DNA of 64,000 nt from NCBI GenBank assembly GCA_951406725.2, contig OX597842.1, positions 20,212,001 through 20,276,000 of the forward strand, read 5' to 3'. The position numbers are program-made. The stretch comes from Octopus vulgaris. Lineage: Eukaryota. How positions within the stretch are numbered: position 1 is the stretch's first letter; each line of letters opens with the position of its first letter. Positions 37,901 through 48,800 of the stretch are shown here, piece by piece.

Positions 37901-40900
37901 AAAGCCAACTGATGTGAATTTTCCAAAACTTTTCACTCCACCCTCGGAAAACTTTTTCACATCAAATTCCGATATATCCATTAATATCCATTTGTCAGAA
38001 AGTTATGAGTAAAGGAAGGTGTGTGATTTAAGGGAGATCTGCCTGTTGTTTCTAACACATCCCACAACCACCTTTCTTGTTTCTTCCTCATTCTAACATG
38101 TATTCATGTTTTTCAATATTTTTGTCCCCATAAAAACATTTATGCTATTTAAAAAAACTGGTTTGAAAATTTGATTTTTGGTGGAATTCTCGTTTAAGTA
38201 CCCCATATAACCCCTCATAACCTTTTTACTTTTTAAATTTTAAAAAAATTCAGTACATTTTCAGTAAAATTCTAAAAAATAATATCTTTTATTTTTTTCT
38301 TTCAGAAACTAAGTTCTTTTCGTTGTTTGTATTTCCCAGTTGGTTTTTGAAACTTCCCATTGCATCAAGCCACAACTATAAGGTATGTCCAAATAGAAGA
38401 GATTCTGTTGTAAATATTGGATTGTATAGTCATAAAAACACAAGATATATATATGAGGGAGATTTAGCTGTTGTGTCTTGCACATCACACAGACTTTCAC
38501 AGAATTACATGTAGACATAGATTAAAGAACAAACAAAATGTGAAAACTAATTCCTTATTTTAAGCATTAAAAATGTAAATTCAGGACTCTATCAATATCT
38601 GTAACTTACTGCAAACTCATTAGGAGATGTGGAGAGAGAGAGAGACAACCCAAAGCAAAACGACCAAGGAGCCGCCGGTTGCCGAAACAGACACTCCGAG
38701 GATTTTCACCAGAGCCCCGTCTGCCGGGTTGTGGGCCTAATACCACTCGGTGTCAGACCAAACTGCCTTGGGTGGCCCTACCAGGAACCAAAGTTCCCGA
38801 CAGCATAGCTCTGACACTACCCGTTGCCAGTGTCCCCACCACGGTGAGGAGGGGATGGACTTCGGGGACGCATGATTTTTGAATGCAACATGAGTTATGG
38901 TGCTTGAGTGCATTGAACTAGAATGAGGGTTGTCATTCAAAAGTCCAAGAAAAAAACAAAGTTTGTAAATGCGAGGAAATACCATGGAGTTTCAGGGAAC
39001 CTGACATGATCTGTAACTGTTGGATTTTCAGAAAAACTATACAAGAAGGTGCAGGAGTGGCTGTGTGGTAAGTAGCTTGCTTACCAACCACATGGTTCCG
39101 GGTTCAGTCCCACTGCGTGGAATCTTGGGCAAGTGTCTTCTGCTATAGCCCCGGGCCGACCAATGCCTTGTGAGTGGATTTGGTAGACGGAAACTGAAAG
39201 AAGCCTTTCATATATATGTATATATATATATGTATGTGTGTGTCTGTGTTTGTCCCCCTAGCATTGCTTCACAACCGATGCTGGTATGTTTACGTCCCCG
39301 TCACTTAGCGGTTCGGCAAAATAGACCGATAGAATAAGTACTGGGCTTACAAAGAATAAGTCCCAGGTTCGATTTGCTCGACTAAAGGTGGTGCTCCAGC
39401 ATGGCCGCAGTCAAATGACTGAAACAAGTAAAAGAGTAAAGAGTAAGAAGAATGTTCACAGTTAGAAGTTTCAAATGATTTAGAATTTTCTTCAGAAAAC
39501 GTTTATTTTGACGTGAAAATGCTGTAGCAAAAAGTGTTTGTGCAAGTTCAAACTGCACTTGTCTCTACTGTACAGCGTTCTGTAGTATTCGAAATAGTTA
39601 AGAATAAGATCTCCAATGCCACAGGCTCGACCACAAATCTATTAAAGAGTGACTGATGATATTGTGACTGTTTGTTTTTCTCAGCCTGACCAGCCTCGGA
39701 CCCTGGGCTATAAACTTTGTTATTTTGCAGCTTTTCAAAATTATTTTTTCAGATCATGGCTAAATGGATCTTGTTCTGCTGTTTGTTTGTAACATTTGAC
39801 CGTAAGTTTTATTTATATTTTATTTAATTTCTTTCCATAACTTATTTTTGTTAAGGCAAACTTACTCAGGTGCACAGGGGTCTGGAATGGGGTCACTCAC
39901 ATAAGGAGGATTTTCTTTGTTTTGGTAGGGATTTTCCCAATTTTGTTTTCATCACAGCTTTAGAAATGATGCATTTTATGGAAGAAAATTTGGTCCAGTG
40001 GTTAGGGCAGCGGACTCGCGGTTTCGATTCCCAGACCGGGCGTTGTGAGTGTTTATTGAGCGAAAACACCTAAAGCTCCACGAGGCTCCGGCAGGGGATG
40101 GTGGTGATCCCTGCTGTACTCTTTCACCACAACTTTCTCTCACTCTTACTTCCTGTTTCTGTTGTACCTGTATTTCAAAGGGCCGGCCTTGTCACTCTCT
40201 GTGTCACGCTGAATATCCCCAAGAACTACGTTAAGGGTACACGTGTCTGTGGAGTGCTCAGCCACTTACACGTTTATTGACGAAAACACCTAAAAGCTCC
40301 ACGAGGCTCCGGCAGGGGATGGTGGTGATCCCTGCTGTACTCTTTCACCACAACTTTCTCTCACTCTTACTTCCTGTTTCTGTTGTACCTGTATTTCAAA
40401 GGGCCGGCCTTGTCACTCTCTGTGTCACGCTGAATATCCCCGAGAACTACGTTAAGGGTACACGTGTCTGTGGAGTGCTCAGCCACTTACACGTTAATTT
40501 CACGAGCAGGCTGTTCCGTTGATTCGGATCAACCGGAACCCTCATCGTCGTAACCGACGGAGTGCTTCCATCCATCCACCGTCTTATTTCTGGAGTGCAG
40601 TCACCATCTCGATTTCTTTTGGAGCCAAGGAAGATGAAATCATCAACCACTTCAATCTCTTCATTATCGATCTTGATGCTGGTGTTTGTTGTGGCTGCTG
40701 TTGACATGATCTTCGTTTTCTTAACCACAACCCGTCACTATTTAATAAATTCTCAGATGTCTTTACTTTAACAGCTTCGTTTCCCTCTGTGTCTGCTGTA
40801 GTGTTTCCTGGTTTATCGAAATACGTGGGAATTTCATTTATGTATCCAATATTTCCTGGGGAGAACCCAAACATTTTACCTCCTTCAGAACAAATTTTTC

Positions 40901-45875: not shown

Positions 45876-48800
45876 TATACATACACACACACACACATAC
45901 ATAGAATGGGCTTCTTTCAATTTCCATCTTGAAAATCCACTCACAAGGCTGACACTTTCCCGAGGTGCTGTGTAGTGGGACTGAACCCAGAACCATATGA
46001 TTTGGAAGCAAACTTCTTAACTGATTTCGTTATTTCAGGACCTGCTGTGCTCAATAGAAATGTCACCCTTTCGATAACAATACCTTATATGGAACGACCG
46101 GTGGTTTGGATGTGCAGCAATTATAAATATGAATGTGACAAGACATGCGTTAATAGCTCTTGGTATAAAGTGACACAGGATGGAAATACCTCCACGCTTT
46201 GGATCAAAAAAGTAACTGAGAAATGTTTGACTTGGATATTTGAAGATGACAACCTTAATGTTGGAAAAATTGATTTGGAGATAAAGAGTAGGAAATGATT
46301 TATAATAATTTCTTTATTAACCACAGAGGGCTAACACAAAGCAAAACATTCGGGAGGGTACAGTGTGGGTTTTAGCATGTAAAAAGTCATACAAAGAATA
46401 AAAGAAATTCAAAGTAAGATCCCTGATAGTGGGGGGGACTGTCAAGGGCTACGCGTTACGAAAGCCCAGTAAATCCAATGTCTCCCTGACCACCAGGGTG
46501 GATGCCCTCTCTCGGTCTTTCCTCTCCAATATACAGGTACACTCTAAGAGAAGGCCCATTCACTCAGGTAATGCTCACCCCTCTCACCCACCTTTCAACA
46601 AACTGCTTGGAAGCCAGCACTTACCTCTCCACCCTGATTTTCCTCTTCAAGTGAAACCTGAAAAAGTTTATTAGGGTTTTGACAAAATGGCAGTTGCTGG
46701 TCTTCAGCCCTTTCAGACATGTCCACTATATGATCCCTTTTGCCATGGGCCCCGAGCAGATAAAAACTGGTTGCCCTTCCTGGTTGAAGGAAAGTAGAGG
46801 GGCCATCTTCACAATGGACTCAGTTGATAGTTGTATATAAGGGTTTCTTTTATTTGCCACAAGGGCAAAGGATGAGGGGGTCAATACCAAGGTGTGTGTG
46901 TGTGGAGGTTATATTATCTTTCTCTTTTTACTTGTTTCAGTCATTTGACTGTGGCCATGCTGGAGCACCGCCTTTGGTCGAGCAAATCAACCCCAGGATT
47001 TATTCTTTGTACTTATTCTATGAGTTCTCTTTTGCCGAACCACTAAGTAACGGGGATGTAGACAAACCAGCAACGGTTGTCAAGCGATGTTTGGAGGACA
47101 AACAGACACACAAACACACACATATATACGACGGGCTTCTTTCAGTTTCCATCTACCAAATTGGTTCTCTTGCTGAACCGCTAAGTAACGGGGACGTAGA
47201 CACCCCAGCATCGGTTGTCAAGCAATGCTAGGGGGACAAACAGACACACAAACACACACATATATACGACGGGCTTCTTTCAGTTTCCATCTACCAAATT
47301 GGTTCTCTTGCTGAACCGCTAAGTAACGGGAATGTAGACAAACCAGCATCGGTTGTCAAGCAATGCTAGGGGGACAAACAGACACACAAACACACACATA
47401 TATACGACGGGCTTCTTTCAGTTTCCGTCTACCAAATCCACTCACAAGGCTTTATATAACCAAGCTCATGTGTGCAACATAGTGTTACTGGAAATTTTGA
47501 TGGGGACTTTTCCTTTAGATCACTTTGAAATGGAATTTGTATAACAGAAATGAAAGTATTTTTTAATAGTTTAGTATGAAAATGGTCAAACTTGGGAGAT
47601 ATTACTATTTTTTATTAAAAACAAAAGGTATATATTTTATTGTTTGTCAATTGCAGATCCGAAACCTAAACCTCATGGACTAACTACACTTGAGATTGTC
47701 GGAATCATTTTTGGCTCACTGATCCTTGCTGCAATCCTTGTTGGACTCGCTTATTTCGGCTACAAATATTTTAAAAATAACGATTAGTATAAGAATGCTA
47801 CAATTTGTGTTCTTTTCATCATCATCATCATCATCATCGTCTGCTTTCCATGCTAGCATGGGTTGGACGGTTCAACTGATGTCTGGAAAGAAGAAATAAT
47901 TCTATTTATCAGAATAAGACTTTCACTGACTGCATTGGCATAGTTGGTTTTTTTAAATAAATTATATCCATATTTTAGCAATATTTTTTCCAAAACTCTG
48001 CTCCGTCTTTTACTGGGAGTTTAAAAATCTTAAAAGCTATTAACTGTATATTTATCAACTTAGGACAACAACTAATTTCATTTATATAATTAACAGACAA
48101 ATCTACATCAATACACTAAACTTGAAATCAATAAATTTGAAACCGAAGGAGCTGAAGGGAAAAACACAAACAGAAAAGGTCCACTTTTAAAAAATTATGT
48201 CCAGAAAAAGTGAGCGGTAGCAGATTCAGCATGGAAAATTACATGAATATTCCAAATTTGAAAATTTTGACTGAATCTTAGAATGCAAAAGAATGTGATG
48301 TGTATGTGTGTGTGTGGTGTCCCACCAACATGTGCTATTCCAATATAATTGCAATCTACACTTTCTTAAAGGTATTTCTCAAAATTTTCATTTAAAAATA
48401 CCCATTTTTCCAGAAGTTATGAAGAAACAAAGTCGGTGGGGTACATTTGCATATGTATACCCATTGCTTTAGCATAAATATCTTCAATTATAATCAAAGG
48501 GTCACTGCTTCCGTAGCCAACGAGAACAAAATCCTTAAGCATAGGAAATGAAGTGTGACCCATTTCTTCCACCTGTGACATTTGCCACAGTGAAGTTCTT
48601 ACCATTGTTGGCGCCTTGCCTTACAGAATGCATTCGGTGATCCCTATAAGGGTACTTGCTGCACCTCCTGTTTGTGTTTCTTTTGGTTTAGGATTTGTAT
48701 TTTAATGTGGTATTGTATTATATGTGTATCATGTAAAGACATGTTATATAAGATAAAACAACAGAAAAATAAGCCAACAAAATCAAAATATTTATTTATT

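Follow-up and report, generated by a model that had tools for sequence, protein, structure and literature searches.

A six-exon Octopus vulgaris gene for a predicted membrane protein with two atypical Ig-like domains and fast-diverging ectodomain exons

The CEACAM, KIR and LILR genes, which belong to the immunoglobulin superfamily (IgSF), lie in tandem clusters, carry variable numbers of immunoglobulin (Ig) cassettes with one domain per phase-1 exon, evolve rapidly in their ectodomains and include members with and without a membrane anchor. Coding exons several-fold more divergent than introns between young paralogues are known from conotoxins and from the phospholipase A2 (PLA2) of snake venoms. 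To our knowledge, no diversified immune or self/non-self receptors have been described in cephalopods. Among invertebrates, the Alr genes of Hydractinia are, according to Huene et al. 2022 (PMC9546547), a clustered family of type I surface proteins whose domain architecture is altered by alternative splicing; several Alr proteins have tails with immunoreceptor tyrosine-based activation or inhibition motifs (ITAM or ITIM), and Alr1 and Alr2 act in allorecognition. Here we analyze a gene, denoted gene B, and its upstream paralogue, gene A, in a stretch of 64,000 nucleotides from Octopus vulgaris (contig OX597842.1 of assembly GCA_951406725.2, positions 20,212,001 to 20,276,000, forward strand; hereafter, the window, numbered from its first letter). 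On balance, we favor the reading that gene B is a spliced Octopus-type gene for a 250-residue type I membrane glycoprotein, a recognition or adhesion molecule with a diversifying ectodomain.

The octopus family to which gene B belongs resembles clustered surface families of the IgSF that evolve fast, CEACAM, KIR and LILR among them. Those vertebrate families, however, have canonical Ig motifs and signaling tails or adaptors and show no sequence relationship to gene B, whose transmembrane helix lacks a charged residue to recruit an adaptor. Conotoxins and PLA2 are secreted toxins, whereas the gene B product would be a membrane-anchored Ig-like protein, and its divergence signal may stem in part from patchwise exchange. 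In the manner of its recognition, the family most resembles Alr. The likeness is one of description: Alr comes from another phylum, several of its proteins have ITAM or ITIM tails, whereas the gene B tail, KYFKNND, has no motif like either, and allorecognition is demonstrated for Alr1 and Alr2, whereas the role of the octopus family is putative.

Gene B, like all the features of gene A described below, is encoded on the + strand. Its six coding exons were read singly, and the protein length is the arithmetic sum of their lengths (46+39+249+39+249+131 = 753 bases, that is, 250 codons and a stop). Each coding exon boundary carries AG or GT, the in-frame translations are open, and all five coding introns are in phase 1, with H, G, S, G and N as the split codons. 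A preliminary description of the locus had proposed these six exons with GT-AG sites, uniformly phase-1 introns and the 250-residue frame; each boundary and the frame were reproduced when the exons were read anew, and the residues at all five predicted coding junctions recur in gene models of O. sinensis or O. vulgaris (..VTFDHLSRAQKYNITQSG.., ..EIKSLSRAQ.., ..EIKNPKPKPHGLTT..). The first coding exon and the two microexons were assessed by alignment of database proteins to the window. At the level of sequence, gene B is confirmed as a real gene with six exons exactly as first placed.

The start-codon exon (39753-39801; AG at 39751-52, ATG at 39756-58, GT at 39802-03, phase 1) places an A at -3 and a G at +4 around the start codon, and its coding part (39756-39801) consists of the predicted signal peptide MAKWILFCCLFVTFD and one further base. 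The signal segment has a mean Kyte-Doolittle hydropathy of 2.55 over 11 residues from residue 4, and the same N-terminus recurs in database proteins P0012, P0013, P0035, P0039, P0040 and P0042. The first microexon (41477-41515; 39 nt, encoding H-LSRAQKYNITQS-G; AG at 41475-76, GT at 41516-17) corresponds to strand A of domain 1 and contains one N-glycosylation sequon, NIT. It is followed by the first domain exon (43500-43748; translation P0001), with 82 whole codons for strands B-G of Ig-like domain 1 and the sequons NLT and NSS. The second microexon (44322-44360; 39 nt, S-LSRTQKYNITQS-G), which supplies strand A of domain 2, differs from the first at 3 of 39 nt, and the second domain exon (46039-46287; translation P0002; sequons NVT, NSS and NTS) encodes a domain identical to the first in 74 of 82 residues. 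The two microexon-domain pairs form a very recent tandem duplication of about 2.85 kb, introns included. The last coding exon (47657-47787, with the stop codon TAG at 47785-87) encodes PKPKPHGLTTLEIVGIIFGSLILAAILVGLAYFGYKYFKNND, in which the PKPKP stalk, the helix with the GIIFG motif and the tail of about 7 residues noted in the preliminary description are all present. The transmembrane segment has a mean hydropathy of 2.75 over 19 residues. The ectodomain pieces of gene B carry 7 N-x-S/T sequons in total, and the three corresponding pieces of gene A carry one. An AATAAA at 47956-47961, about 170 nt past the stop codon, is a candidate polyadenylation signal.

The transcript begins outside the interval initially assigned to the gene, the start of which had been put at 39756. 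Database models and tblastn point to an upstream non-coding exon at 38306-38382, with the 3' end set by a donor GT at 38383-84 and an uncertain 5' end, for which the AG at 38304-05 is a possible acceptor. Models P0040, P0042 and P0035 span the junction of this exon with the start-codon exon, reading ..SSHNYK/IMAKW, and tblastn matches to it run over 38293/38305-38385/38412 at 88-97% identity; the exon contains no ATG, and no stop in the SSHNYK frame. A diverged second copy (67% at the protein level) is located at 30877-30984 (+), with no coding exon of the family nearby, and is possibly the relic of another cassette or gene. Upstream of the 5' exon, the region 38160-38300 resembles, by eye, the unit of a 236-nt tandem array of 6.9 copies at 35655-37295, so that the promoter region of gene B may be derived from, or flanked by, this repeat.

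The domain encoded by gene B is Ig-like by predicted fold. For P0001, AlphaFold2 with a 23-sequence alignment yielded a model of seven strands (residues 8-13, 21-25, 28-32, 42-47, 50-55, 64-68 and 74-78), with a predicted local distance difference test score (pLDDT) of 91.7 and a predicted template modeling score (pTM) of 0.81. A Foldseek search of the PDB with this model gave 8 matches at E<=1e-3, and all the matches listed (E 4e-4 to 2e-3) are Ig-domain proteins or complexes of antibodies or T-cell receptors, with query-based template modeling scores (TMq) of 0.53-0.71 and 10-21% identity. The obscurin Ig32 (0.71), ZIG-8 (0.70) and titin M1 (0.68) domains are among them, along with twitchin, NCAM2, IgLON5, sDscam and antibody light-chain variable (VL) domains. 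The model of a three-domain O. sinensis relative, P0038 (pLDDT 80.5), comprises a signal helix, three sandwiches joined by low-confidence linkers and a transmembrane helix at 313-343, and the peptides equivalent to the microexons add an N-terminal strand to each domain (for example, E24-26 and E213-218). Its Foldseek matches are tandem-Ig proteins, with E-values down to 5e-11 (for example, titin I9-I11), and include PirB/LILRB3 and CEACAM6. In a protein atlas, three unnamed mollusc clusters came first (0.94-0.92), followed solely by V-set, I-set and ig clusters (0.87-0.89); these are leads only. The preliminary description had called for modeling of the ectodomain and a Foldseek search, and on domain exon 1 such modeling produced the beta sandwich and Ig-domain matches expected for a type I membrane protein with two atypical Ig-like domains; the patterns that had been assigned to strands B, C, D and E coincide with predicted strands 8-13, 21-25, 42-47 and 50-55.

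The atypical character of the domain is apparent from its cysteines. Among 55 distinct domain instances, the strand-C tryptophan, W23 (in predicted strand 21-25), is present in 54. Position 12, in the middle of strand B, is I, T or V (a gap in 7) and never Cys, and position 67, in strand F, is Phe in 52. With these two positions equated with the canonical cysteine sites by our own reading of the strand pattern, the canonical B-F disulfide appears to be absent, with hydrophobic residues (Ile12, Phe67) in its place. C32 (55 of 55) and C36 (54 of 55) form an ExCxxxC motif, and there is co-variation between C25 and C62 (36 instances have both, 15 neither and 4 one), suggesting C32/C36 and C25/C62 as putative disulfide pairs. 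The models thus depict an I-set/V-like beta sandwich that belongs to the IgSF by predicted fold and strand-C Trp, whereas neither the B-F disulfide nor the Pfam models place it there. The predicted fold is common to canonical I-set domains (titin, obscurin, NCAM2 Ig1, IgLON5, ZIG-8, sDscam Ig1) and antibody VL domains, and the gene B domain shares with them the strand-C Trp, a strand-E Leu-x-Ile and phase-1 domain exons. It differs from them by the low identity given above, the two other cysteine pairs in place of the B-F disulfide, and the location of strand A on a separate microexon, and no Pfam Ig model passes for a single domain. For relatives with several domains, the I-set score comes to 35.8 bits (P0035) and 31.3 bits (P0036) as sums over stretches, none of which passes alone. 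Pfam matches to Sgo0707_N2 (35.4 bits, P0036) and CNRIP1 were rejected as summed noise, falling below the cut-off in P0038 and P0035 and being absent for the single domain.

Database searches connect gene B to a family of Octopus proteins. A phmmer search of 1.84e9 representatives with P0001 (82 aa) as the query yielded 29 proteins at E<=1e-3, 24 of these at E<=1e-10 and 9 at E<=1e-30; the best E-values were 2.6e-133 in this search and 5.6e-230 in the search of 90% clusters. Word-indexed searches at E<=1e-3 recovered 11 of 24 candidates among longer proteins and both of two among those of similar length. All 13 named matches (E 5.6e-230 to 1.6e-36) come from O. sinensis or O. vulgaris, in agreement, as far as names go, with the lineage-specific clustered family that had been proposed; the restriction to Octopus applies to these named matches, next to which there are 23 further non-bacterial representatives (P0007-P0011, P0014-P0020, P0022-P0031, P0033-P0034). 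A search with a family alignment among proteins of 539-2000 aa returned one match, already known, and left the taxonomic range unchanged. The O. sinensis matches are annotated as 'uncharacterized protein' (LOC115225115, LOC115225116, LOC115225109 and LOC115230624), with P0038, P0040 and P0039 being isoforms X2, X6 and X8 of LOC115225116, and the first three loci presumably share one contig of 21,331,139 bases. In O. vulgaris, the matches are three entries labeled 'Hypothetical predicted protein' (P0035, P0013 and P0041) and an isoform of LOC115225115 (P0042).

By sequence similarity and by its architecture of signal peptide, cassettes, stalk, transmembrane helix and tail, gene B belongs with LOC115225115 and LOC115225116. 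P0040 and P0012 start with MAKWILFCYLFVTFDHLSRAQKYNITQSG, and the signal peptide MAKWILFC.. is common to gene B and its relatives. The C-termini of P0040, P0038 and P0039 equal the stalk, helix and tail of gene B save for the last residue, and tblastn aligns 46 residues of the exon encoding the helix and tail at 93.5%. The four domain exons in the window are 65-92.9% identical to P0035, P0038, P0039 and P0040 (90-93% for the best matches); A-like and B-like genes are not kept apart by the best matches, which pair one kind with the other, so that one-to-one orthology is unclear. A seed hidden Markov model built from the four domains recognized all 37 of the non-bacterial database proteins, with 66 domain instances among them. 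The family plan that emerges consists of a signal peptide, from one to at least five cassettes (microexon plus 82-aa domain), a stalk, a transmembrane helix and a short tail; the named O. sinensis and O. vulgaris relatives follow the same plan as gene B but have 2-5 or more domains. In P0036-P0040, P0006 and P0037, the inter-domain linkers are 14 aa long, equivalent to one microexon and two split codons. The uniform phase of the introns allows cassettes to be gained by duplication, dropped or skipped with the frame intact. Indeed, isoform models differ in their cassettes, with two consecutive microexon peptides in P0039 and P0006, and one inter-domain microexon peptide is lacking in P0035, which is what in-frame skipping of phase-1 cassettes would give, these models being predictions themselves. 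In the distant members P0018, P0019, P0025, P0029, P0031, P0033 and P0034, a single domain is followed by a different cysteine-rich module.

The preliminary description had spoken of a hidden gene, which is too strong a word, given that RefSeq and GenBank already hold function-less models of close relatives. The family is known to databases, yet it is unnamed, unstudied and not recognizable by sequence. None of the four LOC identifiers is mentioned in the searchable main text of papers (supplements lie outside this scope), and our literature search found no publication on the LOC115225115/LOC115225116 family. To the extent of the portions available, PMC13193013 is unrelated to this family, and PMC13428168 brings up cephalopods solely for haematopoiesis.

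Gene A is a real paralogue of gene B. The second copy announced in the preliminary description thus exists, 37,021 bases upstream from transmembrane exon to transmembrane exon, but within the window it is not an intact one. Four of its exons are present (two for domains, a microexon and the final one), and the 5' part lies off the left edge. The first domain exon (1840-2088; translation P0004) shares 60 of 82 residues with the first domain of gene B; the microexon (5691-5729) encodes FSSDSIYKIYQS, without a sequon; and the last domain exon (9273-9521) is 92.9% identical to residues 271-354 of O. vulgaris P0035. In the stalk-transmembrane-tail exon (10636-10760), the second whole codon is an in-frame TAA (10641-43) where gene B has AAA, so that the sequence is P-TAA-P-E-P.., as against NPKPEP.. 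in relatives P0006 and P0037; past this stop, the frame is still transmembrane-like and ends at a TAA at 10758-60. The premature stop would be explained by a secreted form that ends after the last domain, by a young pseudogene, or by an error or polymorphism. P0035 omits the counterpart of this transmembrane exon and continues through a zinc-finger-like exon into a gene B-like unit, so that it looks like a fused prediction; its order (gene A-like domains, zinc-finger-like exon, 5' exon, gene B-like domains) is the order in the window. Downstream of gene A, exon-like pieces used by P0035 (93-97% identity) are located at 12962-13087 and 14835-14927 (+), the former with a C2H2 zinc-finger-like motif between AG and GT, and a minus-strand piece at 14412-14531 corresponds, at 77.5%, to the unusual C-terminus that P0036 of O. 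sinensis has. All three pieces are probably prediction artefacts or alternative 3' ends.

Comparison of the four domain exons (B1 and B2 of gene B, A1 and A2 of gene A) revealed greater divergence in the exons than in the adjoining introns. Exon divergence is 4.8-18.5%, against 0.8-6.6% in 520 nt of downstream intron; in the 60 nt upstream of the exons it is 3.3-8.3%. The exon-over-intron odds ratios are 2.9-4.8, with Fisher p-values from 1.4e-3 to 7.6e-10, in all six pairs. Between the microexons of gene B and gene A, 13 of 39 nt differ, compared to 3 of 75 nt in the flanks. When the alignment was widened by 450 nt upstream, the exon was significantly more divergent in one of the six pairs (B1-A2), and B1-B2 showed the opposite; the wider alignment is blurred by microsatellites and fragments of short interspersed nuclear elements (SINEs).

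The exons also conflict among themselves in the relationships they support. At 12 informative exon sites (nt 103-125 and 169-183), the grouping is B1B2/A1A2; at 5 sites (nt 79 and 140-147), it is B1A2/B2A1, and one site groups the third way, whereas the counts in the 520-nt intron are 0, 0 and 1. Such clustered conflict is a signature of short-tract exchange among domain exons, of the sorting of old variants, or of both. In the protein, variable positions (7, 16, 26, 40-41, 47, 52, 66, 74 and 76, among 24 distinct close instances) alternate with a fixed core, W23, C32, C36, W65, F67, D69, L79 and I81 showing little or no variation among 39 distinct near-full-length instances; this alternation argues against random decay. 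The faster change of the ectodomain exons would fit a recognition role, without saying which one.

Several alternatives to the favored reading have to be weighed. Young duplicates drifting neutrally toward pseudogenes, with no selection and with frames merely not yet hit, would accord with introns that are 93-99% identical, with the TAA before the transmembrane helix of gene A and with dN/dS values at or above 1 (1.22-2.71 in six of six pairs), each of which is computed from 2-7.5 synonymous differences and is individually indistinguishable from 1. Neutral exons should, however, match their introns, and these diverge 3-5 times faster; moreover, substitutions avoid core positions while the neighbors vary, there is no stop or frameshift in four 82-codon domain exons and three microexons, and a family with many members persists in at least two named species. 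We consider neutral drift distinctly unlikely. A better case, although still a rather doubtful one, can be made for a constitutive homophilic adhesion or matrix molecule of the NCAM/IgLON kind, with exon divergence as a by-product of unequal crossing-over and conversion. NCAM2, IgLON5, ZIG-8 and sDscam are among the nearest structures, the tail is too short to signal, and the locus is rich in tandem repeats, with mosaic sites that point to exchange. But exchange alone would also scramble or homogenize introns, and the 3' intron is free of conflicting patterns; furthermore, housekeeping adhesion molecules are usually conserved phylum-wide and recognized by Pfam, which does not hold for the gene B domain.

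The phmmer matches included two proteins, P0021 (E 1.9e-19, 15 stretches) and P0032 (E 1.6e-6, 7 stretches), that carry the bacterial HYR-like four-cysteine repeat (HYR_4C, PF23237; P0021 also carries CHU_C), and both domain types have four cysteines, so that an ancient or acquired relationship might be envisaged. Each repeat, however, contributes about 25-28 bits at 25-29% identity, the low E-values arising by summation over near-identical repeats; the P0032 alignment straddles two neighboring repeats; the family profile against P0032 gives an hhalign probability of 1% (E 0.055); and HYR_4C has no match in P0001, P0002 or the six octopus proteins scanned. Such a relationship is very improbable, and membership of the gene B domain in HYR_4C was rejected on account of the summed weak repeats and the profile probability. 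The E-values of P0021 and P0032, being sums of 15 and 7 near-identical weak matches, call for caution with match lists of this type. Finally, SINE-like and simple repeats abound in the introns, and long spurious open reading frames occur elsewhere in the window, so that the frame might be no more than open stretches and splice-like dinucleotides that repetitive DNA has lined up by chance. This interpretation has next to no chance of being correct and is refuted by the four conserved domain-exon copies in the window, database matches with E-values down to 2.6e-133 and 5.6e-230, and the confident fold prediction.

The favored reading, that of a recognition or adhesion molecule with a diversifying ectodomain, has weak points of its own. 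The support for splicing of gene B comes from gene models of related species, and the assignments of the signal peptide and transmembrane helix rest on hydropathy and on the AlphaFold2 helices of the relative P0038. Pfam returned no family at E<=10 for the single domains P0001 and P0002, which is also why, as in the preliminary description, no described family can be named for them, and the family profile against PDB sequences retrieved just a myotilin Ig domain at E 0.97. The premature stop in gene A indicates that at least one local copy may be dying. Apart from the small numbers behind dN/dS, the six exon pairs are drawn from four sequences and are thus not independent, and the excess of exon over intron divergence could stem from exchange with paralogues outside the window rather than from selection on point mutations. 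Glycosylation, surface location, the recognition role and any partner are, likewise, features that we infer.

The predicted product of gene B is built from a signal peptide, two Ig-like domains of about 95 aa, a Pro/Lys stalk, a transmembrane helix with a GxxxG motif and a 7-residue tail, each domain having strand A on a 39-nt microexon and strands B-G on a 249-nt exon. If gene B is nevertheless a recognition or adhesion molecule, the protein would reside in the plasma membrane, glycosylated and with the Ig-like domains outside, and the surfaces by which it recognizes a partner would be under pressure to change; positive selection, the exchange of short tracts between paralogous domain exons, or the two together would diversify the exposed ectodomain. 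Because the tail has no signaling motif and the helix no charged residue, the protein would either serve as a ligand or marker or operate by lateral contacts within the membrane. The GIIFG motif would be suited to such contacts, although transmembrane motifs of the GxxxG type are common. A bolder and, in our view, unlikely extension is that the locus is part of a germline-diversified recognition system of the octopus, in which exon-targeted patchwise exchange and positive selection renew the exposed surfaces of clustered atypical Ig cassettes, and duplication and alternative splicing combine these phase-1 cassettes into many surface isoforms. Under this extension, the gene A stop would yield a soluble form of the recognition module.

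The remainder of the window is dominated by repeats. Two SINE-like tandem arrays, each with about 9 copies, occupy 50993-52556 (173-nt unit) and 56953-58586 (181-nt unit), and a 41-nt piece that is 83-85% identical to the 173-nt array abuts the acceptors of the gene B domain exons (43440-43480 and 45980-46020); the gene A exons share the flank that holds this piece (1780-1820 and 9220-9255). Minus-strand tblastn matches of P0001 at 57100-58413 (E about 0.2-0.6) fall inside the 181-nt array and were dismissed as chance. At 40051-40499, in the first coding intron of gene B, a tRNA-like, SINE-related segment is directly duplicated over 221 nt (98% identity). At 32751-35143, there is a 2.4-kb satellite with periods of 16 nt and 30 nt and a strongly C-rich skew on the + strand, which is open in several frames; the first 34 residues of O. 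vulgaris P0013 match its translation four times, three of them at 100% and one at 97%, and this public model thus seems to start inside the satellite. An open stretch of 187 codons at 53517-54080 (+) matches DDE_Tnp_1_7 (E 2.4e-7, profile positions 182-293 of 349) and, on the strength of this match, is taken to be a fragment of a piggyBac-type transposase. A 148-nt tandem array of 9.8 copies at 98% identity (62554-64000) continues beyond the window's right end.

Little is known of the molecules behind immunity and cell recognition in cephalopods, and the family described here is a concrete candidate for recognition in the octopus, be it of pathogens, of self and non-self, of gametes or among neurons. 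With Alr of Hydractinia as the first case, it would be a second one in which Ig domains elude the classical motifs. Should the germline-diversified system prove true, it would be a cephalopod counterpart to Hydractinia Alr, the receptors of the Botryllus fuhc region and arthropod Dscam; should gene B turn out to encode an ordinary adhesion molecule, the interest would be modest. In either case, the excess of exon over intron divergence and the cassette structure yield testable predictions about this octopus family.

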